Source: Desulfobacterales bacterium (lineage in GTDB: Bacteria > Desulfobacterota > UBA8473). From it: a stretch of DNA of 64,000 nucleotides. Both the position numbers and the translations under genes were made by a program. The stretch is taken from NCBI GenBank assembly GCA_016209225.1, contig JACQWO010000009.1, forward strand, positions 7,444-71,443, given 5' to 3'. Position 1 is the first letter of the stretch; every line of letters starts with the position of its first letter. Below, piece after piece: positions 7,281 to 58,381 of this stretch. The notes under the pieces were generated by a model. That model searched no databases, had not been told where the DNA came from, and worked only from the letters and a program-made list of their open reading frames with translations.

Positions 7281-7307
7281 TTGACATTCTCCATCCCCCG
7301 TTATAAT
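7281..7307 (+). promoter_or_regulatory. Possible sigma70-type promoter for the lipoprotein gene
   Basis: TTGACA (7281) and TATAAT (7302) are both consensus, but the 15-nt spacer is short. Confidence 0.4.
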
Positions 7308-7353
7308 CTTCCCCCAAAAGAAAATTCCTATTTTTGAAAGGAGGAGATAATCC

Positions 7354-7761: not shown

Positions 7762-7764
7762 AGA

Positions 7765-7886
7765 GTAACTACTTCGGTTCAAAGTTCCGGGGTTCACGGT
7801 TCAAGGTTAGACTGTGGATTCATGAACTATCTCAAGAAAAATTAAGAGCGCAAGCCAACCGTGAACCGTGTACCTTAGTCAGTTAC
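7765..7886. repeat. ~122-bp palindromic element with GTAACT...AGTTAC termini
   Basis: Left arm GTAACT...GGTTCACGGTT, right arm AACCGTGAACC...AGTTAC; same termini and length as 62715-62837. Confidence 0.65.
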
Positions 7887-8003
7887 GATAAATACAGCCC
7901 CGTTTGTTTTATAGCCCTGAAATGTGAAGCTGTCAAATTCCACACGGCATCTTTAGCCGTTTTCATACCTGCTGGCTTCATTATCATTTAGTGAATTCCG
8001 AGC

Positions 8004-9524: not shown

Positions 9525-9613
9525 TAGAGACTGTTCCGAAAAAACTGAGGATTCCTTTAACTACTTGTAGTTAGATGTAATTTGTGATCATTCTAATAAA
9601 ACTGCAATAAGCA

Positions 9614-13899: not shown

Positions 13900-13913
13900 A
13901 ACGGGATTAATCT

Positions 13914-14912
13914 ATGAAAACCGTCAGTTCCCTGCTGGATAAAGCCTGGCATGAACGCTACAGGAAGATATCCGCTCTTAATATCCGCAGTTCCATCTAT
14001 GATGTGACCAACCGATGTAACCTGCTATGCAGGGGATGTTTTTTCTTTTCTTCCAACGAACATAAGGCGGCCACCGAAGAAATGGATGTAGAAAAATGGC
14101 GGCAGTTTGTTCACAGAGAAAAGGAACGGGGCGTTAATCTTGCTATTCTAATCGGCGGGGAACCTACGCTGTGCCTTGACCGGGTTGAGGCTTTTTATGC
14201 GCAACTGCCGACCTATTGTGCGACCAACGGACAGATAAAGATTCCCAGAGAACGCTTTCCTGATATGATGGTGGGCATCTCGCTATGGGGCGACGAAGAA
14301 GACGAAAAGATACTCAGGGGAAAAGATACGTTCGCCGTATCCGGTAAAAATTACGAAGGAGATCCGTACACCTATTATCTGTATACGATCACACCGAAAC
14401 AGGTCGGACGGATAGAATCTATGATCAGAAAGATCACCGATGTCGGGCTGAAAGTTCATCTGCAGTTGTTGACGAATGATGAACATGTAGACGGTTTTTT
14501 CTGGACGGAAGAGAAACTCAGAGATGTTCGAGCTGAAATGGACGATATGCTCGACAAATACCCCAATACCGTCATCTCCTGCAAGTACTACCACGAAATT
14601 ATTACCACGGGGAAGATGATGAATCGGACATTCGGATGGGCGGAGTGCCCATCTGTCACAGAACCGATGGACAACAGGAGTCCCCGGCCCAAAAGGCTCA
14701 TCCGGTTTATCCGCTGGGCTTCTGATCTCCACACCATGCATCGGTGCTGTACATCCGCCACAAGAGATTGCTCGACCTGCAAGGACGGTGCCGCATACAT
14801 GAGCTGGGTCATGGTCAATAAAAGAGACCATCTGCGGTCAGCGAAGGATCTCCAGAACTGGATTGAAGTGTATGAAATGTTTGCCAAACTCTACCGGTTC
14901 ATACCATGGTAG
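13914..14912 (+). CDS. Radical SAM protein (non-B12), uncharacterised paralog B
   Basis: CNLLCRGC, GGEP, ATNG; C-terminal CP...CC...CxxC; motif order identical to paralog A. Confidence 0.8.
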   Translation: MKTVSSLLDKAWHERYRKISALNIRSSIYDVTNRCNLLCRGCFFFSSNEHKAATEEMDVEKWRQFVHREKERGVNLAILIGGEPTLCLDRVEAFYAQLPTYCATNGQIKIPRERFPDMMVGISLWGDEEDEKILRGKDTFAVSGKNYEGDPYTYYLYTITPKQVGRIESMIRKITDVGLKVHLQLLTNDEHVDGFFWTEEKLRDVRAEMDDMLDKYPNTVISCKYYHEIITTGKMMNRTFGWAECPSVTEPMDNRSPRPKRLIRFIRWASDLHTMHRCCTSATRDCSTCKDGAAYMSWVMVNKRDHLRSAKDLQNWIEVYEMFAKLYRFIPW

Positions 14913-14954
14913 TCCTACAGATGCCCACTATACCCACAAACAAGACAGCCAAGC

Positions 14955-16205
14955 ATGGATAGACAAAGACCGGTAATTTTAGGGTATGATGCGGTATCCC
15001 CCCTGGGTGTCGAGATGGAAACTCAGTGGGACCGTGCCTCACATGGCGCAAGCGGTATCGGTTTCCTGACCCGTTTCCCCCTTCGTGAGGGTTTCCCCGT
15101 GCGAATAGCCGGTCAGGTTGATGAGATCGTCACCGATTACTATCCTTTTTTGGCGTCCCGTGATATGGCTTTATGGACATCGCCTGTTTTCAGGCATGCC
15201 CTGTTGGTTGTCCACCGTGCGCTGAAAAAAAGCGGGATAGAGGTAACAAGTGATATTTCACATAGAGTAGCCATTACCTTCAGTTCCGCCATCGGCGGCC
15301 TCGATGCCGTTATCCGTGCGGACAGGCTGTTGGTTTCAGAAGGGAAACTCCCCCATCCTTTTACCAATCCGAACTCCTGTATCAATATGGTGGGGGGGAA
15401 AATATCCATCATGACCGGCGCGACAGGCCCCATAACGTCCACCATCACCGCCTGTGCAACGGGTTCTACATCCATGATTATCGGGGCCATGCTTATCGCG
15501 CAGGGTATGGCGGATGTGGTCATCTGCGGCGCTGTTGATTTTCCCCTTATCGAGCCCATTCTGGGCGGTTTTGCCACGATGAACGGAGCGTACAGGCCCA
15601 GGGAAGGTCAACCGGAAGAACCTCCGGAGAAGGCAAGCCGTCCCTTCTCCATCAACAGGCGTGGTTTTATCGTATCGGAGGGCGCCGGTTGCATCATTCT
15701 CGCGGGAGAGGCATTCGCGCAGGCCCATGGCCTTATCCCCAGGATTGAAATGGCGGGATGGGCCATGACATCCGACGCCCATCATTTTGTTGCCCCGAAC
15801 CTTGAAACGGTCAGACGGTGCATCGCGGAGAGCATTGTCCATTCCGGCCTGCAGCCGGGGGATATTGACGCGGTTAATGCCCATGGGACATCAACGAAGA
15901 TCGGTGACAGGATTGAGGGGGATGCCTTGAAGGATGTTTTCGGCAGCGGCGTGCCGCCGGTATCGGCCAACAAGTCCCAGATCGGCCACGCCATGGGGGC
16001 TTCCTCCGCCATTGAAATCATACTTGCCATGGAGGGGATGATTCGTGATACGCTTCTCCCCACAATTAATTATATGCCTGACCCGGATATCGTTGTTGAT
16101 TGCGTTCCGGAAGGAGCGAGAGCTGTTGCTCAGGAGCACGTGTTAAAAAATGCATTCGGATTCGGCGGCTGTAATTCCTGTATCGTCCTGCGCAGGATCG
16201 CCTGA
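14955..16205 (+). CDS. fabF: Beta-ketoacyl-ACP synthase II-like (FabF family)
   Basis: TACATG, NAHGTST, KSQIGH, NAFGFGG. Confidence 0.85.
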   Translation: MDRQRPVILGYDAVSPLGVEMETQWDRASHGASGIGFLTRFPLREGFPVRIAGQVDEIVTDYYPFLASRDMALWTSPVFRHALLVVHRALKKSGIEVTSDISHRVAITFSSAIGGLDAVIRADRLLVSEGKLPHPFTNPNSCINMVGGKISIMTGATGPITSTITACATGSTSMIIGAMLIAQGMADVVICGAVDFPLIEPILGGFATMNGAYRPREGQPEEPPEKASRPFSINRRGFIVSEGAGCIILAGEAFAQAHGLIPRIEMAGWAMTSDAHHFVAPNLETVRRCIAESIVHSGLQPGDIDAVNAHGTSTKIGDRIEGDALKDVFGSGVPPVSANKSQIGHAMGASSAIEIILAMEGMIRDTLLPTINYMPDPDIVVDCVPEGARAVAQEHVLKNAFGFGGCNSCIVLRRIA

Positions 16206-16219
16206 GGCTTATAAATAAA

Positions 16220-16268
16220 GGCTGAAGAGGATTTTTCCCTAAAAGCCTTCAGTCTTCAGCCTAAACAC
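16220..16268. repeat. REP-like short palindromic unit (GGCTGAAG / CTTCAGCC)
   Basis: GGCTGAAG...GCCTTCAGTCTTCAGCCTAAAC; related units at 19645-19714 and 34700-34766. Confidence 0.5.
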
Positions 16269-16291
16269 CTTCTTATGAACTGTGAACGTAT

Positions 16292-17557
16292 ATGAAACCA
16301 CCAAAGAACAGACGGGTTTTTGTCGTCGGATATGGTGTGGCGTCGCCACTGGGAAAGACATTTAAACAAACATGGGAACGGGCGGTTAAAGGCGAAGCCG
16401 GCTTCCGCAAAGTGACCAGATGTCAGGTGGAATCCCTCTGCGATGTTGTGGGCGAGATTCCGGACTGGGATCCCAAGGAATTCGCTTTTTCAAATGAGAA
16501 GGAGGTTTACAACTGGAATGCGGCTTTTGTCATTCTCACCATGGTTATCTGTAAAGAAGCACTGGAGGACTCCGGGCTTCAAATAAACGGGGAGACGGGT
16601 CCCCGGACGGCCTGCCTGATCGGTTCGTCCATAAACGGAACCGACTCCTTCCGTATCGCCATGGAAAATATGACGGTCAATGGGCCGTTAAAAGTAAGCC
16701 CCTACCTGCTTCCCAACCTCTGCTCCAATCTGCCGTCAGGCAAGGCGGGTATGCTTCTGGGCTTTACCGGTCCGGTCTTTTCTCCTCAGGGGGCCTGCGC
16801 TTCCGGTAATTACGCCGTTGCCGTCGGTTCACGGATGATCCGGGACGGAGACTGCGATTTCGTCCTCGCCGGCGGCGTGGATATGCCTATTATGCCTGAG
16901 ATTATCCACGGTTTTGCCAATATGAATGCCACCGTCAAGATTGTTCCTCATGATCGCGCCTCTGAGGATCCTTCCCAGGCCTCCCGCCCTTTCAGCGTTG
17001 ACCGGAAAGGTTTTGTCCTTTCTGAAGGGGGAGGTGTGATCGTGCTGGCCGCGGATGAGGCTATTTCGCATTACGGTTTGAAGGCAAAAGCTGAAGTCAT
17101 GGGCATAGGCTGGTCGTCAGACGCCTATCATTTTACGAGACCGAACAAAGATACCATCATCCGGGCGCTCAGGGAAACCATTGAAGATGCCGGATTGAAG
17201 CCGCATGACGTGGAGTATGTCAATGCTCATGGAACATCCACGGTCAGGGGAGACAGTACGGAAATAGATTGCCTGCGCGCCGTTTTTGGTGATATGTTGA
17301 AGGATATTCCCATATCGTCGAACAAATCCCAGATAGGACATACGCTTGGCGCCGCTGCCGCCATTGAAAATGCCCTTACTATCGAGGGAATGCGGCAAGG
17401 GGTGATCCTGCCTACAATAAACCATATCCCTGATCCGCTGTTTGACGGTTTGGACTTTGTGTCCAATGAGGCCCGCCGGCGCCGGTATGAAATCGCTCTC
17501 TCAAATGCGTTCGGATTCGGCGGCACGAACTGTTGCGTTATATTCAGAGGGGTGTAG
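16292..17557 (+). CDS. fabF: Beta-ketoacyl-ACP synthase II-like (FabF family), second copy
   Basis: GACASG, NAHGTST, KSQIGH, NAFGFGG. Confidence 0.85.
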   Translation: MKPPKNRRVFVVGYGVASPLGKTFKQTWERAVKGEAGFRKVTRCQVESLCDVVGEIPDWDPKEFAFSNEKEVYNWNAAFVILTMVICKEALEDSGLQINGETGPRTACLIGSSINGTDSFRIAMENMTVNGPLKVSPYLLPNLCSNLPSGKAGMLLGFTGPVFSPQGACASGNYAVAVGSRMIRDGDCDFVLAGGVDMPIMPEIIHGFANMNATVKIVPHDRASEDPSQASRPFSVDRKGFVLSEGGGVIVLAADEAISHYGLKAKAEVMGIGWSSDAYHFTRPNKDTIIRALRETIEDAGLKPHDVEYVNAHGTSTVRGDSTEIDCLRAVFGDMLKDIPISSNKSQIGHTLGAAAAIENALTIEGMRQGVILPTINHIPDPLFDGLDFVSNEARRRRYEIALSNAFGFGGTNCCVIFRGV

Positions 17558-44439: not shown

Positions 44440-44532
44440 ATGGCACGGATAGTAAGAGTCATCATACCGGATACACCTCACAATATTATCCAGCGGGGAA
44501 ACCGCCGGGAAAAAAGGAGAATATGGACATAA
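44440..44532 (+). pseudogene. N-terminal fragment of REP-associated (Y1/HUH) tyrosine transposase
   Basis: MARIVRVIIPDTPHNIIQRGNRREK* matches the typical RAYT start (MARxxRxxxPxxPHHxxQRGNRR). Confidence 0.65.
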
Positions 44533-44963
44533 AAGCATTAAAAAATTACTTTGAAAACCGCAAGGGCATTGCTTTTGCCTTTTTATTCGGCTCCTATGCA
44601 AGAGGCACGGCAACAAAGCTGTCTGATGTTGATATAGCGGTTTATTTTTATCCTGAAAAAAGGCATCCCATAGAGTATGAAGAAGATGTATTTTATAAGG
44701 GCGAGGATGAGATATGGTCAGATATCGAAAAGCTTCTTAAAAAAGAGGTTGAGATGCTCGTTTTAAACAGGGGTTCTTCGAGTGTAGCTGCAAGCGCTAT
44801 AAGAGGGATACCGCTTGCTATAAATGATTGGGGTCTTTATCTTGATTTTATGGAGGTTGTAACTGAAGCGGCCGAGGATTTCAGGGAAATGGTCTTTCGG
44901 GACTTTCTTGAAAGGATGAAATTTGAAAGAAGAGCTAAAGCAGAGATTACTGAAACACATTAG
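44523..44963 (+). CDS. mntA: Minimal nucleotidyltransferase antitoxin (MNT)
   Basis: FLFGSYARG...SDVDIAV (GS-x10-DxD). Confidence 0.85.
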   Translation: MDIKALKNYFENRKGIAFAFLFGSYARGTATKLSDVDIAVYFYPEKRHPIEYEEDVFYKGEDEIWSDIEKLLKKEVEMLVLNRGSSSVAASAIRGIPLAINDWGLYLDFMEVVTEAAEDFREMVFRDFLERMKFERRAKAEITETH

Positions 44964-45363
44964 TTTTCTGGAGGTTGAACTCCGGGATTATCAGAAATTC
45001 AGACAACTCACTAAGGCAGAATATCTTGATGATGTCGACAAGAGAAGGAACGTAGAACGCTGGGTAGAAAATATAATAAATTCGTCAATAGACATATCCA
45101 AGGTCATTCTTACGCTTGAAGGTAAAAGTCTGCCTGACAACTACAAAGAGATTGTGTCTTCCATTTCGGCGGTTAAGGAATTGAAGCTTGAATCAGCAGA
45201 CTTGCTCTCTCGCTGGGTGAAGTTCAGAAACATCATTTCCGATGAATACCTCGATATAAGATGGTCATCCATCAAGAAGTTCATCTCGGAAACAGAACCT
45301 TTCTATAAAGATCTTTTGAATAAGGTGCAATTATATCTTAAAAAGAAAATAGCAGACGACTAA
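44923..45363 (+). CDS. hepT: HEPN/DUF86 ribonuclease toxin, catalytic His apparently replaced by Asp
   Basis: VERWVENIINSSIDI, FRNIISDEY where the family has R-x4-H. Confidence 0.8.
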   Translation: MKEELKQRLLKHISFLEVELRDYQKFRQLTKAEYLDDVDKRRNVERWVENIINSSIDISKVILTLEGKSLPDNYKEIVSSISAVKELKLESADLLSRWVKFRNIISDEYLDIRWSSIKKFISETEPFYKDLLNKVQLYLKKKIADD

Positions 45364-45660: not shown

Positions 45661-45864
45661 ATGAGAACAACGCTTGACATACCTGAAGACTTAATTGATG
45701 AGGCTATGAAAGCTACTAGAATTAATACAAAAACCAAAGTCATAATCACTGCCTTAGAAGATTTAATAAGAAAATCAAAGATATCCGGCTTGAAAGAATT
45801 CAAAGGCAAGATAAATTTGGACATTGACATGAATGCAATTAGAGGGCGTCAATGTCGGTACTAG
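45661..45864 (+). CDS. vapB: VapB-type antitoxin (DUF2191-like)
   Basis: MRTTLDIPEDLIDEAM...TKTKVIITAL; precedes PIN toxin with overlap. Confidence 0.85.
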   Translation: MRTTLDIPEDLIDEAMKATRINTKTKVIITALEDLIRKSKISGLKEFKGKINLDIDMNAIRGRQCRY

Positions 45865-46232
45865 TAGATACATCCATATGGATAGAATATTTCAGAAGTG
45901 GAAATAGGTCTGAAAGACTTGATTTCTTAATTGATGAAAACCTAATTGTTATTAACGATCTCATTCTTGCCGAATTAGTACCATCTTTGAGGGTTATCAA
46001 TCAACGAAAAATTATTAAATTATTGTATGATATAAACAAGTTAGAGTTATCCATTAATTGGAACCAGCTTATTGACTTCCAATTCAAGTGTTTGAAAAAT
46101 GGTTTAAACGGAATCGGCATCCCTGATCTTATTGTAGTCCAAAACGCGAAACAAAACCGCTGCCAAATTTATTCACATGATAACCATTTTAAACTCATGG
46201 AAGACATCCTTGAACTCCGGCTGTTGGTTTAA
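45852..46232 (+). CDS. vapC: PIN-domain toxin
   Basis: VLVDTSIWIEY, ILAEL, IPDLIV, YSHDNHF. Confidence 0.9.
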   Translation: MSVLVDTSIWIEYFRSGNRSERLDFLIDENLIVINDLILAELVPSLRVINQRKIIKLLYDINKLELSINWNQLIDFQFKCLKNGLNGIGIPDLIVVQNAKQNRCQIYSHDNHFKLMEDILELRLLV

Positions 46233-47232: not shown

Positions 47233-50200
47233 ATGCAGCCATATTCGGGGATTCTTATTACTGGCGTCGGTTGTGTCGGTAAAAGTTCTCTTAGACGCCG
47301 GGTGGCTGAAGCCTTTGGCAACCGAGTAGTATGCGTTGACCGGGATGACGCACTTCCTGAGCCGGAGGTGGCTCCAGGTCAAGTTCTGGTTGTTGAGTCT
47401 GTTCATGGACTTGAAGAACCCCCAGACCGATGGGGACTAGTGATTTATCTTCTTCCCCGACCGGGACTTGCACTTCGCTGGCTTTGGCGTGGGCTTATTT
47501 GGTTCAGGACCGGCAAGGTAGATCGTCCGCCACGAGCGTTACGAAAGGCTTTGTCATTACGTAATATTCCTATTATTGTTCATCTGGTAGCAAGAAATCT
47601 CTGGAATTCAAAGCGCTGGGTCGAGCAGGATTTAAAACGCATTACTGAACTTTCCTATAAAAACATCTTGGTGACAAATGACTCAGAAAAAGCGTTCAGT
47701 GAAATACGAGAATTGATCGAGAGGATGAACATGGTTACGGAAAATAATGAGGATAAACTTAAGAAATGGATCAGAGACAGCATTGAATTGGATTTGGTAT
47801 ACGATGAGGAGAACTATAATAAAGTAAACGGATGGGATTTACCATCTGTTAAAGATGCTTATAAATCAATTGAGGATCATAAATCAGCAGATTTATTTAA
47901 TTCCCTTGATAATTCTAAATCTTCCGATTCTTATTATTTCTATTTTAAATGCCTAAAGAAGAGACGTATCTTCTATGATTTGGAGTATGATAAAGCAAGA
48001 AAAGCTTTTGCCGACCAGGATCCTAATTTTGAATATAAATCTGTATGTGAGGCAGATGAAGTACGAAAGGAAATCCTTGATGGCATCATGTGGCGCTGTG
48101 CTGCCGCTATTTCCGATCTTCTAACTCAAAAAAAATCTCTAAAAAAAAATGAAGTACCCACATTCGAAGAGACATATCAAATTAAGGAGTTTGCCACTTT
48201 AATAGCCCTATTCCATTCGGAACTCTGTGCCAGCGCCACTCCAGATGTATCCTTGGGGCAAGCAAATACTTTTCATCTTACCGTTCCAGAAGAAGCCATC
48301 GGTTACGAAGTATTTAAATGGCTCGCCCGTCATAATCTTGCGCGTGGGTATACCCATATACATTTGAATCTTGAAGCTCTGAAATACATAGACACTTTGG
48401 TCGATGATTTTCCTAACAAAATCAGCGGCTTCGCAAAATCTATTAATTGTGATGAAAATCTCCTTTATCAGTGGCTTTTTTTCCCAACATCACGTACACT
48501 CGCTCAATCCCTTCTTGATCTGGGACGGCATTCAGAACAGAGATATTATTTAAAGAAAGCACTTGATGTGGCCAAATCAAAAAATATTGATCATTGGAAG
48601 AATAGACTACAGCTAGACTTAGACCTTGAGTGGAGAGATTCCGAAATATCTCTCAATTCTGACGAAATCTCTAAACGATTGGATAATTGGAAAAATTTGC
48701 CTGCTAGGCTCGAAGAAGCCTGCCAAACTGTTAAATCTTCATGCCCAGAATTGTTCTTAAATAAAACGGATGATGAAAAAAAATGGAATGAATGGAAAGA
48801 AAGTGAAGAATGGATTATTAGGTGGCACTCGGCAGATTTAACCGGATTTGGTCGTCATCTTAAAACGATAGCTAAAACAATTTCCGAGATGCTTAAAAAT
48901 AGGCCTGGGAAAAAATTATCTATTAAAGCCCTTCAGAGCATGATAAAGATGTTGGTTGAAGTCTACAGTGGTATCAAACGATTTGGTCAGAATGGTAAAA
49001 AACCTTATCCTTATGTTTATTACTTAATCCCTGATAACGATGGAGATAATTTTTCAGAAAAAGATCGGGTTTCAATTTGGGAGCAAGGTAGCGCGTTATT
49101 CAGTGCTATTAGAGATATACTAGATGATGAAGATATATCAGAGAGAGAAGAAATAGAAAAGAGGAAGGGAATAGTATCCGAACTAAGTAGCTTAAAATGG
49201 AAAGAGCACCTGAAAAAACTTTTAAACAAGAAAGATATAGATTTTGATAAATATCGCTCCCAAGCGATAAAGGCTGATGTATTTCGGGAAGACCAATGGC
49301 CCCAACAATATAAATGCCCACGAGATAAAGTTAAAGTTACTTGTAAGTCAACTTGCCCAGCTAATACATTTTCAGGAGATGTGTCTCCTATAATGAAAGA
49401 TACTCATTTGGCCCAATTAGGCCATTACAAATCAATTATGGCCGGTCAGCAGGAACGTTTTCTTAATTATCTGAAATATCGAACAGGACAGAAAAGGTGC
49501 TATAGACAGGGTGAAGCATACCTTCAGACACCTAATTTTGAATTAATTTGCCTTAGGCGTTGGAATTCTTTTTCTCCTAATCTTGGCTCTCGTGCGGCAG
49601 CTACTGTAGGGGGCGGCTACCTTGTACGAGCATGGGATGAAGATAAAAAACGCTATATTGGTATTGTAATTGACCCCGGTTATAATTTCCTAGAGAATTT
49701 GTTTAATGAAGGCTTTACACTACCGGATATAGATGTTGTGGTGATTACTCACGCACATCCAGACCATATCGAGAACCTCACTAATATTCTTACACTCATT
49801 AGAGAACGTAAAAATCGAGTGAGAGAAAAAAACAATGAAGAAAATGGGGATCACTGTAGAATCTCACCTCAAGATCACCGCATTCTTTTAGCCATGACCG
49901 AGGGTGTATTCGAGAGGTTTAGCCGATATCTTGATGACGAGAAAGATTATATCAGAGACGTATTAGTTCTATCAGCCGCCAACGCCCCTAGAGGAAATAA
50001 AGCTGGGAAAAATGAATTAAAGCTCTTGCTTGATAGTAATAACGATGTAACCTGTCATATGAAACTTGAATGCAATAAAGAAAATAAAGGAAAAATCAGT
50101 TTACGTGCCGCCCGCGCTTGGCATTTTGATGGCACTGATCATGATAGTATGGGTGTTGTAATAGAGTATAACGTACCCTCAAAAGACCCATATAAATTGG

Positions 50201-50826
50201 GAATAATTGGAGATACCAGATATATTCGAGATGATCTTTGCGATGATTATAAAGACTGCGATGTAGTGGTCGCTCACCTCGGCAGCCTTATTGATAAGAA
50301 AATGTATATGGACATGTTAGGAAGTAATGATAAACATAATTCTGTAGACAATAATGAATTCAATGATAAACTCTTGAAATTAATTACTAAAAAGAATCAC
50401 CTCTATCTTCCCGGACTTGCTCTATTAATATGCAACCTTCAGATAAAATCGCGAAAGTTCCCATTATTTGTTCTCTCTGAGTTCGGTGAAGAGCTACGTG
50501 GTGGTTTACGGAGGGATTTAACTCTTCGACTTTCATCTATTCTGGCTCACCCTGATAAAACTGATAAAACAAGTCCCATACCTATCATCCCGGGTGATGT
50601 GGGCTTGCGTATTGACATTGAGAATAATAAAGTCTTTTGCTGCATTTGTAACCGTTATGAAGATCCAATAAATATCAAATTTGAAACCGTATTGCCGGAC
50701 GAAGAGTCAATGGCCTATGTATGTAATGACTGTTATGAATTGAGACGAGGGGAGTTGACAAAGCTGTTAGAACAGTGGTGCACAACTGCCAGACCTGTGT
50801 GCAAGCTTGAGAAAAAAGCCAAATAA
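47233..50826 (+). CDS. Large multidomain protein: N-terminal P-loop kinase-like domain, helical middle, C-terminal metallo-beta-lactamase fold with Cys-rich tail
   Basis: ITGVGCVGKS Walker A; LRRWNSFSP...GGGYLV...IDPGY...THAHPDH (HxHxDH); later AWH, GDT, AH ligands; CCIC...CNDC tail; possible internal start ATG 47731. Confidence 0.75.
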   Translation: MQPYSGILITGVGCVGKSSLRRRVAEAFGNRVVCVDRDDALPEPEVAPGQVLVVESVHGLEEPPDRWGLVIYLLPRPGLALRWLWRGLIWFRTGKVDRPPRALRKALSLRNIPIIVHLVARNLWNSKRWVEQDLKRITELSYKNILVTNDSEKAFSEIRELIERMNMVTENNEDKLKKWIRDSIELDLVYDEENYNKVNGWDLPSVKDAYKSIEDHKSADLFNSLDNSKSSDSYYFYFKCLKKRRIFYDLEYDKARKAFADQDPNFEYKSVCEADEVRKEILDGIMWRCAAAISDLLTQKKSLKKNEVPTFEETYQIKEFATLIALFHSELCASATPDVSLGQANTFHLTVPEEAIGYEVFKWLARHNLARGYTHIHLNLEALKYIDTLVDDFPNKISGFAKSINCDENLLYQWLFFPTSRTLAQSLLDLGRHSEQRYYLKKALDVAKSKNIDHWKNRLQLDLDLEWRDSEISLNSDEISKRLDNWKNLPARLEEACQTVKSSCPELFLNKTDDEKKWNEWKESEEWIIRWHSADLTGFGRHLKTIAKTISEMLKNRPGKKLSIKALQSMIKMLVEVYSGIKRFGQNGKKPYPYVYYLIPDNDGDNFSEKDRVSIWEQGSALFSAIRDILDDEDISEREEIEKRKGIVSELSSLKWKEHLKKLLNKKDIDFDKYRSQAIKADVFREDQWPQQYKCPRDKVKVTCKSTCPANTFSGDVSPIMKDTHLAQLGHYKSIMAGQQERFLNYLKYRTGQKRCYRQGEAYLQTPNFELICLRRWNSFSPNLGSRAAATVGGGYLVRAWDEDKKRYIGIVIDPGYNFLENLFNEGFTLPDIDVVVITHAHPDHIENLTNILTLIRERKNRVREKNNEENGDHCRISPQDHRILLAMTEGVFERFSRYLDDEKDYIRDVLVLSAANAPRGNKAGKNELKLLLDSNNDVTCHMKLECNKENKGKISLRAARAWHFDGTDHDSMGVVIEYNVPSKDPYKLGIIGDTRYIRDDLCDDYKDCDVVVAHLGSLIDKKMYMDMLGSNDKHNSVDNNEFNDKLLKLITKKNHLYLPGLALLICNLQIKSRKFPLFVLSEFGEELRGGLRRDLTLRLSSILAHPDKTDKTSPIPIIPGDVGLRIDIENNKVFCCICNRYEDPINIKFETVLPDEESMAYVCNDCYELRRGELTKLLEQWCTTARPVCKLEKKAK

Positions 50827-50844: not shown

Positions 50845-51948
50845 TTATAACTTCAGGACCAGTGGGTCCGCCGCCCCAGTTATTAGTCCGGCGGCTGAAC
50901 GACACCCCCCGGCACATTCGTAAAATATTTTGCATAGGTAGCCTGTTTCGTAATCTACGCATTTCTTCGGAAGGAAAGAAAAGGTACGTCGTTTAACAAG
51001 TAATGGATGCTCGTTCCACATTTTTATTGGTTCTACTTCCAAGAGGGAAAGCCCGACTGGCGGGCCTCCGGGACACAGCTTGAAGTGACCTTCCGGGTCA
51101 AAGGCAAGCTGGGATATGGCCATGTAACAGGGACGAATACTTGCAAGGAGCGCGTCAATAAATGCTGAACTCAGTCTATTGGAATTCGCTCGATCTAGTA
51201 TCCAGCAATGGGGCACAGCTTCAACTCGCATTTCCCAGTCTCCACTGGCCAACTGTCCGATCGCCTGCATCACATTCCACCAACCATCCTCGTCCAAGAA
51301 TACACTTTGGCCTCTTTCCGCACCTTCCCCGTATGGCAAAAGACGATTAACATCAATGAAGCGGACAACACCGCTATACCTAGTACTTAGCATAGCAGCT
51401 AATGCTTCAAGTCCATTTTTATCAAGTCTTGTAGGTGAGTATTGAACGAATACCCTCACACCTGCCTCAACCATAGTATCAAGACTATTTATGGCTCGAA
51501 GAAAAGAATTTGATGAACCCGTCAAGCGATCATGAATATCTGCCACAGAGCTATGTAATGAGACTCCAACTTCAATATTAATATCTGATAGGAGGTTAGC
51601 ACGCTTTTTATTGATATGGCCTCCATTAGTAACAATTCGTTGCTCAAGACCCAACTTCGCGCCAAGTTCTAAAATTGATTCGAAATCCGGATGAATTGTT
51701 GGTTCACCACCCAGGTATAATATTTCACGCACCCCCCAGGTCGCCAATGTCTGAATAATTTTTCTTGTAGTCTCCCCGGGAGGATTAGCGTGACTATGAT
51801 TTTCGACCGGATTATAACAAAAGGCGCACCTTTGATCGCAGCACCAGGTTAAATCAAACATAACATTATCTGGTGCATTGGGAATACGGTAGAGGCAACC
51901 GGGCCGCACATCATAAGTAAAAAGATGTCGGGATTTCATTACAACCAT
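50845..51948 (-). CDS. Radical SAM/SPASM protein (RiPP operon, distal)
   Basis: CDQRCAFC, GGEP, TNG; C-terminal CYM...GHFKLCPGG...C...C...CAGGC. Confidence 0.85.
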   Translation of the reverse strand: MVVMKSRHLFTYDVRPGCLYRIPNAPDNVMFDLTWCCDQRCAFCYNPVENHSHANPPGETTRKIIQTLATWGVREILYLGGEPTIHPDFESILELGAKLGLEQRIVTNGGHINKKRANLLSDINIEVGVSLHSSVADIHDRLTGSSNSFLRAINSLDTMVEAGVRVFVQYSPTRLDKNGLEALAAMLSTRYSGVVRFIDVNRLLPYGEGAERGQSVFLDEDGWWNVMQAIGQLASGDWEMRVEAVPHCWILDRANSNRLSSAFIDALLASIRPCYMAISQLAFDPEGHFKLCPGGPPVGLSLLEVEPIKMWNEHPLLVKRRTFSFLPKKCVDYETGYLCKIFYECAGGCRSAAGLITGAADPLVLKL

Positions 51949-52021: not shown

Positions 52022-53152
52022 TCATTCCCTTACCTTATTTGATCGCTTAGCTTCAAAATATAAAGATGCGGTAGCTTCAATATACTTATCAAAGTTTTCC
52101 ACAAGGCCACCGGGAGGCTCAACTTTATTCATTAAGGCCGCTTTATCCAGAGCATCGGCAACACTTGCGGGATCTTCCGGATCGACCACAAGAAGCAATG
52201 GAGAATCTCGGAGCAAATCGGTATCAGGATGGTTAACTGTGGATGGCGATACCAGACATGGACGCCCTACGGATAAAGTCTCCCAAACAATGTTACTGAA
52301 ATTAGATATACCGCCCTCGCGTTCTACCGCCCAAACAGCTGTTGCTTCGGAAAGCAAGGATGGCATTTGGTCAGGAGAGATAAAAGACCGACGAGTAATA
52401 CGCTGAGACAGCCCATGTTTTTTTATCTCGCTTTCAAAATCTTCTCTTCCTTTACCATCAGCTACCATTTTAAGACGCCAGTCTTGCCGCAATCTGAAGG
52501 ACTCTAATAAGGTGTCGAGGGCTTTTAGCTTCCAGTAATAATTTATCTTTCCAGCGAATAGCAGGCAAAAAGGAGAAGGGGAAATTCCAACAGGCGAAAA
52601 GGCCTGGGGATCTGGAGCGTATCTTGGAAGGAAGACGAGCGAATTGGCAGAGTTGGTTCTTTCAGGTAATTGTGAAACTGCATCGGGTGTCGAAACAATA
52701 AAGTCAGCTTTGATTATAAGTGACTCTAAAGCGCGCTGAGCTGGCTTCCAATTATAGAGCTTGGCCAAGTCACTTCCAGCGTGTCGAATGAGCAAAGGGA
52801 CACCAAGCATCCGAGAGATAGTGAATGCGGCGAATCCATAGGGGACTAGATAATTGGCTTCAATTAAGCCGGGCATTTGATCGTTTGCAAGGTCAAGAGC
52901 AGCGGAAACAAGCCGCTCTATCCAAAGCCCTCCGCCGGGTATGAACCAAGGAGGCTCCTCCTCGATTGTGATTTGACGAAGTCGAATCTTGTTCGGAAGT
53001 TTGCCAGTAGTCTCTGACCGATACAGTGTAGGAACGATAGTAACTATGTCGAAATAAATGTCGTGCGCGGCCAGTGCATGGCATAGCCAGAAGCTCCTCG
53101 AAGAAATCCCTCCCTGGCCTGGCGGGAACTTTCCTATGAGAAGGACCTTCAT
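52022..53152 (-). CDS. GT-B fold glycosyltransferase (GT4-like)
   Basis: LLIGKFPPGQGG start, HAGSDL, FAGKIN, FSNIVWETLSVGRP; ATGA overlap with asnB. Confidence 0.75.
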   Translation of the reverse strand: MKVLLIGKFPPGQGGISSRSFWLCHALAAHDIYFDIVTIVPTLYRSETTGKLPNKIRLRQITIEEEPPWFIPGGGLWIERLVSAALDLANDQMPGLIEANYLVPYGFAAFTISRMLGVPLLIRHAGSDLAKLYNWKPAQRALESLIIKADFIVSTPDAVSQLPERTNSANSLVFLPRYAPDPQAFSPVGISPSPFCLLFAGKINYYWKLKALDTLLESFRLRQDWRLKMVADGKGREDFESEIKKHGLSQRITRRSFISPDQMPSLLSEATAVWAVEREGGISNFSNIVWETLSVGRPCLVSPSTVNHPDTDLLRDSPLLLVVDPEDPASVADALDKAALMNKVEPPGGLVENFDKYIEATASLYFEAKRSNKVRE

Positions 53153-54855
53153 GAGGCAATTACCTGCTTGTTAACTTCAGCTGCAAAGTCATAAATGGAA
53201 AAGTCAGGTGGAGTAGAAAACCCTGGCTCGACATGCAGGTAGATGAAAAGTTCTGCAAGAAGGCTCTGCAAATAATCTGGTTTCTTCTTGCCGTTTTTAT
53301 CGTTGGGAAGTTTTTCCAAGAGCTGCGCTGCTGCCATTTCTACCGCTGAAGGCATCGCTCTTTTCCGACGTACTGCAACTCGTTCCATACCAGGTTCAGT
53401 AAACCGACGTCTGGCAATTGATCTTAAGGGCATCTTCGTCCAGTTATGGGTCCTGTCGATAAGTGAAGCTTCGTCAAGGCGAGCAACATAATCAACTAAT
53501 TCATTGTCAAGGTAGGGAGGGCGGATTTCAAGACCAAAGGCCATTCCTGAACGGTCCACGCTTGGGAGGTGATACTCAGAAAGGCCTTGATGGAGAGCGA
53601 GATCACGGATTGCATGGTTCCCTCCAGAATTTGGGTGTAGCAAATTGTGAACCTCTAGCCACTCTCTGAGAGCTGGGGTCGCATGGCTTTCAGCGCGTTC
53701 CTTCATAGTTTCAATAAAAAGATTTGGTTCCATATGGAGTCTATGATAACCAAGAAATAGCTCGTCAGCCCCTTCTCCGCAGAGAGCAACCCGGAAGTCA
53801 CTCCCTACGTTGCGCGCCAGAGCGTGGAATGCAACCCCACCCAAAAGGTCAAAAGTACCACCAGCAATTGGATGTTCAAAATGCCATGCATAGTGGACAA
53901 TTTCGCGGGCAAGGTCAGACTCATTGATTAATCGCTCTTGAAGAGGTACATCGAGAGTGGTAGCAATCTTCCTAGCCTCTACTAGATCGTCGGTGTCTTC
54001 TCTGTCACTCAAAATGAAAGCGGTGACTGGAATTTCTTTCCTTGCAATATCAAGTAGCAGCGAGGAGTCGAGTCCTCCTGAGAAAAAGAGGGCCTTTGGA
54101 TTCAGATCATGCAATACAGCTCGTTTTACTGATGTGGTTAAGAGATTCTCTACAACATCTCGAAGCTCTTCAGGATCTGGATGGCTACCTTGACCAGGTT
54201 GAGGAACTTTAGGAACCTGGGCAAAGAGCAATTCTTTTATAACTCCAAAAGATTGAACTTCGACAAAGTGGCCTGGTTGTACTGCACTGATGGCTCTAAA
54301 AGGAGTCTTCCCAACAAATATGTTATATCCCAGGACAGAAAAAGACGACATGACATCTTCGTCTAATTCCCGAGAGAAGCCGTGAAGCGATAGCAGTACT
54401 TTCATTTCAGAAGCGAAAACTAGACCTCCTCGATGGTTAGCATAATAAAGTGGCTTGATGCCGAATCGGTCCCTGGCCAGAATCAAACTGTTTCCGTCAA
54501 AAAAGCATAAAGAAAATAGTCCATTTAAGTCAGGTAAAAGTCTCGTACCACGTTCTTTAAGAAGCTGGCCCATAAATTCGGTATCTGTTTTAGGAAAAGC
54601 TGATTTAGGATTTTCATAATTTATGCCTAACCCATAAATTTCACCATTAAGCACTAACACCTGCTGATCGGATGGAGAGCATATCGGAGGCGAATCCAGA
54701 GGTGGCAGGATGGCAAGACGGCAACTTCCAAGTGCAAGAGTGTCTATTTGCTTCACTTGACGACAATCTGGTCCTCGGTACCCAAGCACGTTGAGTGCTA
54801 CTGATATCTCTTCACAAGAAATGTCTGTGTTGAAGGCTCCTACAAACCCACACAC
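53149..54855 (-). CDS. asnB: Asparagine synthetase B-like glutamine amidotransferase
   Basis: N-terminal MCG (Ntn Cys), RGPD, NGEIY, RDRFGIKPLYY, SGGLDS, GEGADELF, DRSGMAFGLEIRPPYLD. Confidence 0.9.
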   Translation of the reverse strand: MCGFVGAFNTDISCEEISVALNVLGYRGPDCRQVKQIDTLALGSCRLAILPPLDSPPICSPSDQQVLVLNGEIYGLGINYENPKSAFPKTDTEFMGQLLKERGTRLLPDLNGLFSLCFFDGNSLILARDRFGIKPLYYANHRGGLVFASEMKVLLSLHGFSRELDEDVMSSFSVLGYNIFVGKTPFRAISAVQPGHFVEVQSFGVIKELLFAQVPKVPQPGQGSHPDPEELRDVVENLLTTSVKRAVLHDLNPKALFFSGGLDSSLLLDIARKEIPVTAFILSDREDTDDLVEARKIATTLDVPLQERLINESDLAREIVHYAWHFEHPIAGGTFDLLGGVAFHALARNVGSDFRVALCGEGADELFLGYHRLHMEPNLFIETMKERAESHATPALREWLEVHNLLHPNSGGNHAIRDLALHQGLSEYHLPSVDRSGMAFGLEIRPPYLDNELVDYVARLDEASLIDRTHNWTKMPLRSIARRRFTEPGMERVAVRRKRAMPSAVEMAAAQLLEKLPNDKNGKKKPDYLQSLLAELFIYLHVEPGFSTPPDFSIYDFAAEVNKQVIAS

Positions 54856-54875: not shown

Positions 54876-55733
54876 TTATCTGCTCAGTCGATGTAGCGCT
54901 GCACTCCAACCAAGATGGAGCCAAGCTGATCCTTCCTCTATAAAATGTGTAGCAAATAAGCCGTTATCTAGGCGGTTAGATTCACACCAATGGATGGCAC
55001 GTTTCAGAGCTTCATCGCTCTGTCTGCTATTGGACACGGAGGCAATCGCCCACATAGCGATACCGGTAGAGAAACAATCGGTAGGGGCAGGATGGTTACG
55101 CCAGGGCCCCCAGACACCGTCGTCTCTTTGGTCGGCGAGCAGATGATTCAGCGTTCGTTCAAATAGACTAGAATTTCCCTCCTGTTTATCTTGCGCGAGA
55201 AGAAACCATGCAGCCTTATAAGAAAGACACTGGAGGTTATTAACATCCTTCAACCACTGGTTATTTAGCCAAGTCGCTGAACGTTCATCACGAAGGGAAG
55301 GCACTAGAAGCCGAATGGTAGAAGTAATGGGAATGCAAGGTGTGTCCCGATGACAATATCCCCATCCGTCTCCAGAACGCTCTTCTGCTAACCATTTAAT
55401 GCTAAGTCCTGTATCGATAGAAGGATCCCCAAGGTATCGGAGGACTAAGATGCACCAAGCAGTATCTTCACAGTCAACCCACGCGCCATCAGTGTGACGT
55501 TTGCTGACTAAGTAGCTTAATACACTTTCCCGCCAGGTAACAGAGGTTCCTTCTATACCAGAGAGCAACAATAGCCCAGCTAGCCTTGCTACACGCCGAT
55601 GAGGCAACTTCCTTTGTATGAAATCGACAAGAATCCTCTGGAGAGTAGCCGAGGTTGGCTTGAGAGCATCGGGCCTAGGTTCAGTACTGATCCCATTCTC
55701 CTTTAGAATAATAAATTTCCTATCTACACCCAT
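54876..55733 (-). CDS. Prenyltransferase/squalene-cyclase repeat (alpha/alpha barrel) protein
   Basis: QW-like repeats RHTDGAW, RSGDGWG, QRDDGVWG, RLDNGLF; likely start ATG 55733 (ORF track 55760). Confidence 0.7.
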   Translation of the reverse strand: MGVDRKFIILKENGISTEPRPDALKPTSATLQRILVDFIQRKLPHRRVARLAGLLLLSGIEGTSVTWRESVLSYLVSKRHTDGAWVDCEDTAWCILVLRYLGDPSIDTGLSIKWLAEERSGDGWGYCHRDTPCIPITSTIRLLVPSLRDERSATWLNNQWLKDVNNLQCLSYKAAWFLLAQDKQEGNSSLFERTLNHLLADQRDDGVWGPWRNHPAPTDCFSTGIAMWAIASVSNSRQSDEALKRAIHWCESNRLDNGLFATHFIEEGSAWLHLGWSAALHRLSR

Positions 55734-55842
55734 GGCACCCAGAACATTGACGGCAGACATACTTCCAGCCTGCTCGTATTGGCCGAAGGATGAAATCTAA
55801 ACCTTTTTTACGTTTGAAAACCGGTTTTTCATATCGCTGCAT
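55720..55842 (-). CDS. Putative RiPP precursor peptide, 40 aa (not in ORF track)
   Basis: MQRYEKPVFKRKKGLDFILRPIRAGWKYVCRQCSGCHGCR*; GGGGGGTG SD-like motif upstream; YxxP leader motif; directly after PqqD-like gene. Confidence 0.8.
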   Translation of the reverse strand: MQRYEKPVFKRKKGLDFILRPIRAGWKYVCRQCSGCHGCR

Positions 55843-56173
55843 TTTTTTCACCCCCCTTTTTTTCGTTGATTATTTTCTTCTCATTGGAATCATGCAATAA
55901 TTCCAAACACCCTTCGCAAACAGCTTCCTTGATTAAGATTTCCAAATCGTTGCGGGCTTCGTTTGCTTCCTTAAAATTAGTCTGGATATCCAAGCAAATT
56001 TTATCAATGTCCCTTGAGCCGTCCATTCTTATGAACATTTCAAAAGCGACTTTATTGAGTTCGAAGCGTTCACCTGTCCCAGACTTATACATAAAGTATT
56101 GATCAGTACCCTCAGGGTGGACGAGCTTTACTCCTTTTACTAGGCGCGGGTATTTTCGGGTTCGATCCAACAT
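55829..56173 (-). CDS. PqqD-family RiPP recognition element (RRE)
   Basis: FELNKVAFEMFIRMDGSRDIDKIC...DLEILIKEAVCEGCL fits the PqqD pattern (LN..A..I...DG....I...L....EEG.L). Confidence 0.8.
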   Translation of the reverse strand: MLDRTRKYPRLVKGVKLVHPEGTDQYFMYKSGTGERFELNKVAFEMFIRMDGSRDIDKICLDIQTNFKEANEARNDLEILIKEAVCEGCLELLHDSNEKKIINEKKGGEKNAAI

Positions 56174-57204
56174 TGAGGGTCACCTCCTAACCAATCGCCG
56201 CAAAATGACAGAGCCATTGCACGACAACCACGACAAATCGGTATAAACCTGCAGTTTGAACACAGGCCTTTTAAATTAGATGGTTCTCTAATCCTCCATA
56301 ATATTGGCGAGGCGTACCAAATGTCATAAAGACTATCGGTCAGGATATTTCCAAGAGGAATGGGCAACCTCCTACATGGGTAGATCGTCCCATCATGAAG
56401 AATGCATAAAGCATTTATTCCAACCGAGCACATGGCTCCAACATGTGGTGACTGATCATCAACAAGACAATAGAGCGGCCGATACATTAATACTTTTGGT
56501 CTATCATGCTCGTGTGCCCATTTATAGACACCATGAAAAGCTTTTTTCAATTGTTCGGGCGTAAGTATCCAGGACTTCTGATCTGCCGCCTGTCCTTCAG
56601 GAATAAATCGTTCGACGCTGAAAAAGTCAACATTGTATTCATGGAGAAGATCAAGAAGGGGAATGATGTCATTTACATTATGCTGTGATATTGTCATCAT
56701 AATAGAGACCGTTAAGCCATGACGCTTCATCCGGGAAATAGCATCAAGCGTTTTCCGAAAAGAACCTTTGCCACGGATACCATCATGAGATTCTGCAGTA
56801 GCTCCTTCCAAAGAAACCTGGACTCGCCTTAGCAATGATTTATGCGCTAATTCTTCACAATCTGAATCGCTTAGAAGAAGACCATTTGTAAGCAGATCTA
56901 CTCGATCAATAAGGCCGCCACTGGCAAAGCGGTCGAGCAATGATAAAACAGAGTGTCGGCGTAACCAGGGTTCACCGCCCGTTAAGCTAACTGCGCCTCG
57001 ACGATCCCATTCTTCAATGGCGGCTTCCAGAATATCTACCACTTTTAGAAGCAGCTGATCAGAAAGTTCGTTTGCAGAATCATAAGAGGTATGGTAGCAA
57101 TGACGACAGCGACAATTACACTGTTCGGTTATATGCCATTGGAAATAAAATTCAGTGTCAATTGAGGGTTCCTGGTAGACCATTCGAGATCCAGAATCTA
57201 TCAT
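56140..57204 (-). CDS. Radical SAM/SPASM peptide maturase (RiPP operon, proximal)
   Basis: QWHITEQCNCRCRHC, TGGEP, TNG, VQVSLEG; full SPASM CSVG...DGTIYPC...LGNI...CSNCRFIPICRGCR...DPQC. Confidence 0.9.
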   Translation of the reverse strand: MIDSGSRMVYQEPSIDTEFYFQWHITEQCNCRCRHCYHTSYDSANELSDQLLLKVVDILEAAIEEWDRRGAVSLTGGEPWLRRHSVLSLLDRFASGGLIDRVDLLTNGLLLSDSDCEELAHKSLLRRVQVSLEGATAESHDGIRGKGSFRKTLDAISRMKRHGLTVSIMMTISQHNVNDIIPLLDLLHEYNVDFFSVERFIPEGQAADQKSWILTPEQLKKAFHGVYKWAHEHDRPKVLMYRPLYCLVDDQSPHVGAMCSVGINALCILHDGTIYPCRRLPIPLGNILTDSLYDIWYASPILWRIREPSNLKGLCSNCRFIPICRGCRAMALSFCGDWLGGDPQCWIEPENTRA

Positions 57205-57709: not shown

Positions 57710-57728
57710 GATAATGGAGGTGATTATA

Positions 57729-57929
57729 ATGGGACGCACAAATATTGTTCTCGATGATAAACTTGTGGATGCTTGCCTTAAGGCCACTGGAATCAAAACT
57801 CGCAAAACGTTAATCGATCATGCCCTCATGGAACTGCTTCGGCATGAATCCCAAAAGAAAATTCTCGAGCTTAAAGGAAAAATTCATTGGGAAGGAAACC
57901 TGGCAGAGTGGCGACAGGGACGTGATTAA
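57729..57929 (+). CDS. vapB: VapB-type antitoxin (DUF2191-like)
   Basis: MGRTNIVLDDKLV...IKTRKTLIDHAL...LKGKIHWEG; GGAGG RBS. Confidence 0.85.
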   Translation: MGRTNIVLDDKLVDACLKATGIKTRKTLIDHALMELLRHESQKKILELKGKIHWEGNLAEWRQGRD

Positions 57930-57931
57930 CA

Positions 57932-58381
57932 ATGCTTATCGTCGATACGACCGTCTGGATTGATTTCTTTGCTGCACGATCAGCGCCACATGTGGAGATA
58001 TTAGAAACGCTTATCGAGGAAAGAGAAGATATATGCATCTGCGGGATCATTCTCTCAGAAGTACTTCAAGGCATTCGTAAAGAATCCGAATTCAGAAAGA
58101 CAAGAGACCTGTTCGATTCTCTGGTTTTCCTCCCGATGGAATACAAAACTTTTTTACGCTCAGCCGAGATATACCGACTGCTTCGCCGAAAAGGCATAAC
58201 TATTAGTCAGCCTATAGATTGCATGATAGCGTCGGTTGCCATTGAAAATGATATTCCGCTTCTCCACAACGATAAGCATTTTAACCCCATAGAAAAACAC
58301 TGTGGATTAAAGCGATTTTGCCAGCACTTGACACCCTCCCCTTCATCCCCTACCATTAAGGGAGGAAAGAGGGGGAAGTAA
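57932..58381 (+). CDS. vapC: PIN-domain toxin
   Basis: IVDTTVWIDF, ILSEVLQG, IDCMIA, LLHNDKHF. Confidence 0.9.
   Translation: MLIVDTTVWIDFFAARSAPHVEILETLIEEREDICICGIILSEVLQGIRKESEFRKTRDLFDSLVFLPMEYKTFLRSAEIYRLLRRKGITISQPIDCMIASVAIENDIPLLHNDKHFNPIEKHCGLKRFCQHLTPSPSSPTIKGGKRGK

Follow-up and report, generated by a model that had tools for sequence, protein, structure and literature searches.

Between two neighbouring genes on the minus strand of a Desulfobacterales contig lies an unannotated open reading frame (ORF) of 40 codons, which raises the question of whether so short a frame is a gene at all and, if it is, what its product does. The ORF falls within a stretch of 64,000 nucleotides, hereafter the window, taken from positions 7,444 to 71,443 of contig JACQWO010000009.1 (assembly GCA_016209225.1). 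A previous reading of the same DNA, made from the sequence alone, had described it as a precursor-type peptide with a YxxP leader motif and four evenly spaced cysteines in its C-terminal tail. Our analyses indicate that the ORF is a translated gene under strong purifying selection, whose product is very probably the substrate of a radical S-adenosylmethionine (SAM) enzyme with a SPASM domain. Members of the same family also occur in phages and in small-genomed Bacteria and Archaea, apart from any such enzyme.

A short gene with an invariant C-terminal core

The ORF runs from the ATG at 55842 to the TAG at 55722-55720 on the minus strand. Its translation, MQRYEKPVFKRKKGLDFILRPIRAGWKYVCRQCSGCHGCR, agrees exactly with that given in the sequence-only reading, including the ends of the frame, cysteines at residues 30, 33, 36 and 39, and Y4-E-K-P7 near the N-terminus. 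The G-rich Shine-Dalgarno-like motif said to lie upstream is GGGGGGTG at 55856-55849, separated from the ATG by six A's, and the closest relative (locus L157) has GAAGGAGGG at the equivalent position. Overlaps with both neighbours were likewise located; they amount to 14 nt with the PqqD ORF, which stops at 55829, and to 41 or 14 nt with the downstream toroid gene, according to whether that gene starts at ATG 55760 or at ATG 55733. The second start, inside the last codons of the peptide, is preferred by an alignment of 40 orthologs and is probably the correct one. In L157 the peptide is a separately called gene without overlaps, and on this comparison the overlaps are a local feature of the window genome. 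Scanning the operon for Rfam families, promoters and terminators produced nothing that exceeds chance. The features concerned are as follows.

55720..55842, minus strand: putative precursor peptide gene, 40 aa, with YxxP at residues 4-7 and the invariant C-terminal motif C-R-Q-C-S-G-C-H-G-C-R
55849..55856, minus strand: Shine-Dalgarno-like motif
54876..55733, minus strand: single-domain alpha/alpha toroid protein, terpene-cyclase-like, about 285 aa (weak SQHop_cyclase_C match)
55829..56173, minus strand: PqqD-like protein, 114 aa, of the type that acts as RRE (recognition element for ribosomally synthesised and post-translationally modified peptides); Pfam PF05402, 26.1 bits against a cutoff of 23.4
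56140..57204, minus strand: radical SAM/SPASM maturase, 354 aa (Pfam Radical_SAM and SPASM)

Among 40 relatives of the window genome there is a single close ortholog of the radical SAM enzyme (47% identical; genome G015, locus L014), and directly after its radical SAM and PqqD genes lies a 45-codon ORF, MEKEKKPYEKPVIKKETGMRFPIEILQAGSKKIVCKQCSSCHGCR, syntenic with the window peptide. A profile built from these two peptides retrieved 42 homologous clusters from a collection of 5.8 billion proteins, and one from 41 peptides, run against 1.84 billion representatives, retrieved 270 clusters at 50% identity. The 150 matches listed are proteins of 39-104 aa, in which the aligned part nearly always reaches the C-terminus. 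Pattern scans located 82 loci in approximately 186,000 species genomes and a further 58 in viral contigs of IMG/VR.

Conservation of the cysteines and of YxxP, a check that accompanied the sequence-only reading, is complete in an alignment of 41 members: Y4, P7, C30, Q32, C33, S34, C36, H37 and C39 are invariant, and F17, G38 and R40 nearly so. In 42 of 48 full-locus peptides the YxxP tyrosine lies 38 residues from the C-terminus. Q32, S34 and H37 show no more variation than the cysteines, and they must also matter. The same reading had offered W26-K27-Y28 as modification or cross-link sites, which the alignment does not bear out, W26 being confined to the small subfamily of the window while K27 and Y28 vary.

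The DNA beneath this core behaves as that of a coding sequence. Across 89 distinct DNA versions of the final 11 codons all synonymous codons occur while the residues remain constant; cysteine is encoded by TGC and TGT at about 1:1, arginine by six codons, and serine by both TCN and AGY. The peptides of the window and L157 share 80% amino-acid identity; their genes differ at 21 codons, 13 of them synonymously and 8 with a change of residue, and third positions account for 16 of the 26 base differences. Synonymous saturation combined with invariant residues indicates that the peptide is translated and under strong purifying selection, and on this evidence the 40-codon ORF is a genuine gene. We rejected a chance ORF in view of family size, synteny and the saturated synonymous sites. 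A c-type cytochrome was also considered, since C33-S-G-C36-H fits CXXCH and one member is labelled 'cytochrome c' by JGI (Joint Genome Institute); we judged this coincidental because no signal peptide was seen by eye and the radical SAM neighbours are cytoplasmic.

Two variations on the theme were observed. Viral members at L146 9980-10162 and L148 9754-9945 carry an insertion with extra cysteines (e.g. CQDCKTELCYRECIH) ahead of the C-terminal motif, and a Pacearchaeota locus (L051 9723-10120) has two different family members in tandem.

A conserved radical SAM cluster around the peptide

The peptide gene lies directly behind genes for the PqqD-like protein and the radical SAM/SPASM enzyme and belongs to a large conserved family, which supports the original view of it as a precursor-type peptide. 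In the window it forms part of a compact minus-strand operon of seven co-oriented genes, encoding the radical SAM/SPASM enzyme, PqqD, the peptide, the toroid protein, an AsnB-like amidotransferase, a family 4 glycosyltransferase (GT4) and a second radical SAM enzyme. It thus has the parts of the generic class of radical SAM/SPASM systems with a discrete PqqD: the enzyme, an adjacent PqqD, and a syntenic, co-oriented short precursor gene.

Cluster membership elsewhere was defined by tblastn of the window proteins against every fetched locus. About 50 full loci share one order, in which the radical SAM gene, some 1.4 kb ahead of the peptide, is followed by PqqD, by the peptide itself, in most cases by a gene for a protein with a metallo-beta-lactamase (MBL) domain, and by toroid, AsnB-like and GT4 genes. 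The sequence-only reading had proposed looking for homologs near PqqD and SPASM genes, and in 48 of 50 full loci a PqqD-like ORF was found no more than 1.5 kb from the peptide. In most, an MBL ortholog of 950-1250 aa follows the peptide immediately. The core set defined in this way contains no transporter or exporter and no protease. Among Bacteria, full loci occur in Desulfobacterota-type metagenome-assembled genomes (MAGs), one Desulfovibrio isolate, Actinomycetota, Chloroflexota, Bacteroidales, Firmicutes, KSB1, Calditrichota and one Levybacteria MAG; among Archaea, in Methanoperedens, Methanophagales, Thermoplasmatota and Bathyarchaeia.

The maturase has the CxxxCxxC motif and passes the Pfam cutoffs for Radical_SAM (69 bits) and SPASM (36.8 bits). 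Its best scores among curated families are with the peptide-maturase models ACGX, SbtM, WgkB and StsB, the top NCBIfam model being TIGR04340 of the ACGX system (192.7 bits against a cutoff of 400). Among solved structures it comes closest to SkfB, an enzyme that forms thioethers (6efn, E 2.7e-18).

Other proteins of the cluster

Besides the toroid protein, the remaining enzymes of the window operon and a large convergent gene are as follows.

53149..54855, minus strand: AsnB-like glutamine amidotransferase, 568 aa, with Cys2 glutaminase and PP-loop (Pfam Asn_synthase and GATase_7)
52022..53152, minus strand: GT4-family glycosyltransferase, 376 aa (Pfam Glyco_trans_1_4 and Glycos_transf_1)
50845..51948, minus strand: second radical SAM enzyme, 367 aa (Pfam Radical_SAM), present in one cluster subtype only
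47233..50826, plus strand: 1197-aa protein (Pfam Lactamase_B_2), convergent with the operon

The AlphaFold2 (AF2) model of the toroid protein (pLDDT 91) is a single alpha/alpha barrel. Its best Foldseek matches are class II terpene cyclase domains (drimenyl diphosphate synthase, squalene-hopene cyclase and MstE) and the thioester domain of alpha2-macroglobulin and C3, and neither LanC nor prenyltransferase beta appears in the top 50. No cysteine is among the residues invariant in 40 orthologs. With no invariant cysteine and a predicted fold unlike LanC or prenyltransferases, a role in Zn-thiolate alkylation or lanthionine formation is not supported. Prenylation or LanC-type chemistry by this protein is accordingly set aside; both roles were rejected for the lack of conserved cysteine and for the terpene-cyclase-like predicted fold.

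The AsnB homolog scores 229 bits with TIGR01536, against a cutoff of 267, and matches 7ylz and 1ct9 in the PDB. Its sequence retains the glutaminase cysteine and the PP-loop, and carboxylate amidation would fit.

The 1197-aa protein consists of an N-terminal P-loop kinase-like domain, a long and poorly conserved middle, an RNase Z-like MBL phosphodiesterase domain and a Cys-rich C-terminal tail. Residues 700-1197 (498 residues) were modelled with AF2 at pLDDT 76, and the best Foldseek matches of the MBL domain are RNase Z, ELAC, YhfI, PNGM-1 and the cyclic-nucleotide phosphodiesterase Apyc1, which places the predicted structure in the phosphodiesterase/nuclease branch of the fold. A PqqB-like role was considered and is unsupported, the fold being nearest to RNase Z and ELAC with PqqB outside the top 50 matches. 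The P-loop kinase-like domain (window 47233-47730) is missing from most orthologs. Free-standing P-loop kinase-like ORFs of about 190 aa that resemble this N-terminus were observed at four CPR (candidate phyla radiation) or DPANN loci (L019 3207-3803, L041 10220-10777, L051 10107-10679 and L055 569-1180), where they lie beside a peptide gene without the cluster and are paired with an APH-family kinase.

A second radical SAM enzyme characterizes a subtype formed by the window and loci L065, L076, L083, L088 and L089, none of the latter five showing a full MBL protein. A PHP phosphoesterase gene is present instead in L076 (region 13174-17239), L088 (region 13705-17282) and L065 (region 15901-17432). 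A small gene for a P-loop kinase-like NTPase precedes it in L076 and L065; in L076 and L088 it is followed by a gene whose product is about 900 aa long and, in L088, includes HD and HD_assoc domains. From gene content, the absence of MBL and presence of PHP and HD proteins looks like effector swapping. A B12-binding radical SAM protein of about 490-516 aa was also observed in L083 (10601-12151), L076 (6950-8419) and L065 (13380-14852), bringing these clusters to three radical SAM enzymes each; the window has none.

Genomic setting

Toxin-antitoxin genes stand on both sides of the window cluster and suggest that the block is an accessory island.

44523-45363: MNT nucleotidyltransferase and HepT RNase pair (toxin-antitoxin), flanking the cluster
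45852-46232: PIN-domain gene (toxin-antitoxin), flanking the cluster
57932-58381: second PIN-domain gene, preceded by a small ORF (the pair spans 57714-58381)

The flanks of about 45 full clusters were surveyed out to 5 kb, giving 141 ORFs with a minimum length of 150 aa. PADLOC matches comprised mad3 (6), mad2 (3), AriA (3), SoFic (2) and PtuA (2), as well as type I and IIG restriction-modification, PDC-S04 and HEC-01A; Pfam matches included N6_Mtase (4), AAA_21 (4), AAA_15 (3), NERD, Fic, integrase and type IV secretion system coupling proteins, and ABC_tran was matched by 3 of the 141. One full cluster (L018) is flanked by WYL-RNase T on one side and by AbiEi/AbiEii on the other. Full clusters appear to lie in a mobile or defence-island setting, an indication only, being a count without a matched background. 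The cluster proteins themselves, searched against PADLOC-DB v2, correspond to no described or candidate system and show only a generic radical SAM similarity to pVip; matches to LmuA and PDC-M48B have E values of about 0.005.

Proposed mechanism

We consider it very likely that the ORF encodes the precursor-type substrate of the radical SAM/SPASM enzyme, working with a separate PqqD-like docking protein; from this we infer the docking step, the site and type of modification, and an intracellular role for the product. By analogy with PqqA-PqqD and with lasso leaders, YxxP and the hydrophobic stretch that follows it would dock on the PqqD-like protein. Docking would present C-x-Q-C-S-x-C-H-G-C-R, whose end lies a fixed 38 residues from the tyrosine, to the radical SAM active site, where Cys-centred radical chemistry would take place at the C-terminus; thioether-type cross-linking of the peptide cysteines is the most likely outcome. 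The AsnB-like amidotransferase, GT4, the toroid protein and, in the subtype of the window, the second radical SAM enzyme may further tailor the peptide. Because the core lacks an exporter and a protease and the cluster includes a phosphodiesterase, the product is probably intracellular, and we favour a role tied to the nuclease or phosphohydrolase module: it would act inside the cell with the RNase Z-like phosphodiesterase, or with PHP/HD phosphohydrolase in other subtypes, in a mobile or defence-island setting.

Several observations weigh against this reading. The maturase lies below the cutoff of every curated model, such that its chemistry is unreadable from homology. The large MBL gene of the window is on the strand opposite the operon, and its co-expression is not assured; the defence-island setting is a count lacking a matched background. 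Moreover, at about 90 loci the peptide occurs with no radical SAM, PqqD, toroid, AsnB or GT4 gene inside 10 kb (tblastn at E 1e-3, with jackhmmer for PqqD), and roughly two thirds of family members are without a maturase. Searching 23 of these genomes in their entirety (mostly CPR and DPANN, most of 0.5-1.2 Mb) recovered no radical SAM ortholog, the best score being 144 bits as against 260-410 bits for true orthologs. The peptide may, then, work unmodified in these hosts.

Precursor-only copies in phages, CPR and DPANN

The orphan copies, as we call members without the enzymes, retain Y, P, F and the C-terminal motif. Viral copies, on 58 contigs, adjoin genes for terminase large subunit, portal, major head, tail sheath and other virion structural proteins, the neighbours belonging to several unrelated PHROG families. 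Carriers in the CPR are Uhr-, Parcu- and Paceibacterota and Moran-, Wolfe- and Saccharibacteria; those in the DPANN are Woese-, Pace- and Nanoarchaeota.

At the DNA level, orphan and full loci are homologous in the peptide gene only. Phage contig L116, in which a portal gene directly follows the peptide, is 98.2% identical over 111 nt to the precursor gene of the Bacteroidales cluster L040, and L105 is 90% identical to L031 over 220 nt. Homology that is limited in this way indicates that phages captured the precursor gene alone, at least once recently.

Further features were seen beside some orphan copies. At three viral loci (L125 686-1360, L135 2721-3446 and L148 8965-9753) an Asn_synthase PP-loop gene of 224-262 aa lies directly upstream of the peptide, the sole cluster-like enzyme found beside phage copies. 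Five DPANN loci (L025, L030, L051, L081 and L086) have a divergent TrmB-family regulator about 150-900 nt upstream on the opposite strand, and one orphan locus has an ABC exporter. On a 60-kb viral contig (L104, about 340-9900) a 3187-aa ORF stops about 100 nt ahead of the peptide gene.

Alternative explanations

The phage copies invite an explanation in terms of host-parasite conflict, which is doubtful on balance and nonetheless to be taken seriously: in free-living anaerobes the matured peptide would govern the nuclease or phosphohydrolase module, one possibility being a labile ligand that behaves like an antitoxin in an abortive-infection system, and phages, perhaps also CPR and DPANN episymbionts, would carry counterfeit precursors that host enzymes mature, keeping the effector silent. 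In its favour are the 58 viral contigs with the peptide beside terminase, portal, head or tail genes and no maturase, the retention of both leader motif and invariant core in phage copies, phage-host homology that covers only the peptide gene, the interchangeable modules (RNase Z-like MBL, or PHP plus HD), and the defence, toxin-antitoxin and mobile genes around the clusters, L018 among them. Yet no PADLOC model fits the cluster proteins beyond the generic pVip similarity, the defence genes are counted without a background comparison, and CPR and DPANN organisms are separate cells, so that access of their peptide to host enzymes is not obvious. In its boldest form, which we think unlikely, the cluster is an intracellular module of RiPP type, serving immunity or addiction, in which a peptide matured by the radical SAM, AsnB, GT and toroid proteins gates a swappable effector, RNase Z-like MBL or PHP with an HD protein, and whose precursor is repeatedly stolen by phages, possibly also by CPR and DPANN, such that host enzymes make the silencing ligand.

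Where no maturase exists, stand-alone metal binding by unmodified orphan copies is possible, and as an account of the whole family this becomes a proposal we regard as rather improbable: a mini-protein that binds Zn or Fe-S through C-x2-C-x2-C-x2-C plus histidine, in the manner of a DnaJ-like CxxCxGxG knuckle, and works unmodified, the radical SAM cluster being a lineage-specific elaboration. Most members lack a maturase in cis and the 23 orphan genomes lack one altogether, H37 and G38 are conserved alongside the cysteines, CSGCHG resembles the DnaJ zinc-knuckle motif, and some orphans have their own TrmB regulator or ABC exporter. Orphans nevertheless keep YxxP and its fixed spacing, which make most sense as an RRE docking device; the phage copies derive recently from full clusters, and about 50 loci preserve the tight radical SAM-PqqD-peptide order. 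The peptide might alternatively be processed to a small cofactor or metabolite, much as in pyrroloquinoline quinone (PQQ) and mycofactocin biosynthesis, with phage copies serving as auxiliary metabolic genes that boost host supply. PqqB is an MBL-fold protein, and the gene set is alike in its peptide, PqqD-like chaperone, radical SAM/SPASM enzyme, MBL-fold protein and glycosyltransferase, the last being MftF in mycofactocin; the window leader YEKPVF also resembles the PqqA start WKKPAF. Scores with the PqqE and MftC models are only 77 against a cutoff of 381 and 113.5 against 265, however, the MBL domain is RNase Z-like with PqqB outside its top 50 fold matches, and the core has no peptidase and no PqqC-like or MftD-like oxidase; the cluster is also rare (82 loci in approximately 186,000 species genomes) and patchy across both domains, with toxin-antitoxin and defence genes at its flanks rather than a dependent dehydrogenase. 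A phage that carries PqqA alone has been published (Coutinho et al. 2020, PMC7678222), and even with this in its favour the cofactor explanation is improbable. Least credible, to the point of being negligible, is a lasso-peptide precursor whose YxxP leader is bound by an RRE, with the AsnB homolog as lasso cyclase: YxxP is invariant and an Asn-synthase homolog is in the cluster, but the cyclase model NF033535 gives 71 bits against a cutoff of 525, the seven cluster proteins include neither a transglutaminase-like leader protease (B2) nor any other peptidase, the last acidic residue of the window peptide is D16, leaving no Asp or Glu in the final 24 residues for an isopeptide bond, and the AsnB homolog retains the glutaminase Cys2, as in amidotransferases. 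The cyclase score, the missing protease and the lack of an acidic acceptor in the core rule a lasso peptide out.

Significance and relation to known systems

If the modified-substrate reading is correct, the peptides constitute a large, unnamed radical-SAM-modified family spanning Bacteria, Archaea and their viruses, with an 11-residue core more conserved than the active sites of most enzymes. The precursor-only copies are more interesting still: either a precursor-type peptide functions without its enzymes or parasites exploit host maturation machinery. Such a pattern in phages has so far been published solely for PqqA; in the present family it accompanies a nuclease-bearing cluster with defence and toxin-antitoxin genes around it, and the possibility of an immune system gated by a peptide can thereby be put to a direct test. 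Searches of Pfam, NCBIfam (even at E<=10), PHROGs and PADLOC gave no match for the peptide, and literature searches by motif strings and by combinations of cluster terms returned nothing that describes the peptide family or the gene set. The radical SAM/PqqD cluster is, apparently, undescribed.

Sactipeptide and ranthipeptide systems (SCIFF-CteB, PapA-PapB, subtilosin AlbA, SkfA-SkfB and StsB) share a short precursor with a Cys-rich C-terminal core and a radical SAM/SPASM enzyme with a PqqD-type RRE; SkfB is the nearest structure to the window maturase, which partially matches the models for StsB (95.8 against a cutoff of 625), PapB (73.9 against 340) and SkfB (79.5 against 300), all far below cutoff. 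The window peptide, by contrast, fits no known precursor family such as SCIFF, the RRE is a separate protein, and the invariant core extends over 11 residues in which Gln, Ser and His are conserved like Cys. The cluster also adds AsnB, GT4, toroid and a large RNase Z-like protein and has neither exporter nor protease in its core, and the precursor gene is found by itself in phages, CPR and DPANN. The ACGX system (TIGR04340), the best-scoring curated radical SAM model, is likewise an uncharacterised Cys-containing peptide system defined bioinformatically, although its score of 192.7 bits is below the cutoff of 400 and in the window peptide the cysteines recur every third residue and ACGX repeats are absent.

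Lasso systems resemble the cluster in leader recognition, YxxP being bound there by the RRE of the B1 protein and found here as an invariant Y-x-x-P near the N-terminus with a PqqD-family neighbour; leader protease, lasso cyclase (71 against 525 bits) and acceptor Asp or Glu in the core are all absent here. Mycofactocin (MftA/MftB/MftC/MftF) is comparable in its peptide, PqqD-like chaperone and glycosyltransferase and in a radical SAM/SPASM enzyme acting on the extreme C-terminus, as the window enzyme would by analogy; it differs in that the MftC model TIGR03962 gives 113.5 bits against a cutoff of 265, the window peptide ends in CHGCR rather than GVY, and equivalents of MftD and MftE are lacking. 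PQQ biosynthesis (PqqA/PqqD/PqqE/PqqB) shares a tiny peptide with an aromatic-x-x-P leader, a separate PqqD, a radical SAM/SPASM enzyme and an MBL-fold protein. Here, in contrast, the PqqE model TIGR02109 reaches 77 bits against a cutoff of 381, PqqC is absent, the window peptide has no Glu...Tyr pair and no Glu in its C-terminal part, and the MBL protein is RNase Z-like rather than PqqB-like, in islands with toxin-antitoxin and defence genes. It is nonetheless phage-borne PqqA, a precursor gene alone in a phage, that forms the closest published parallel to the viral copies described here (Coutinho et al. 2020, PMC7678222).

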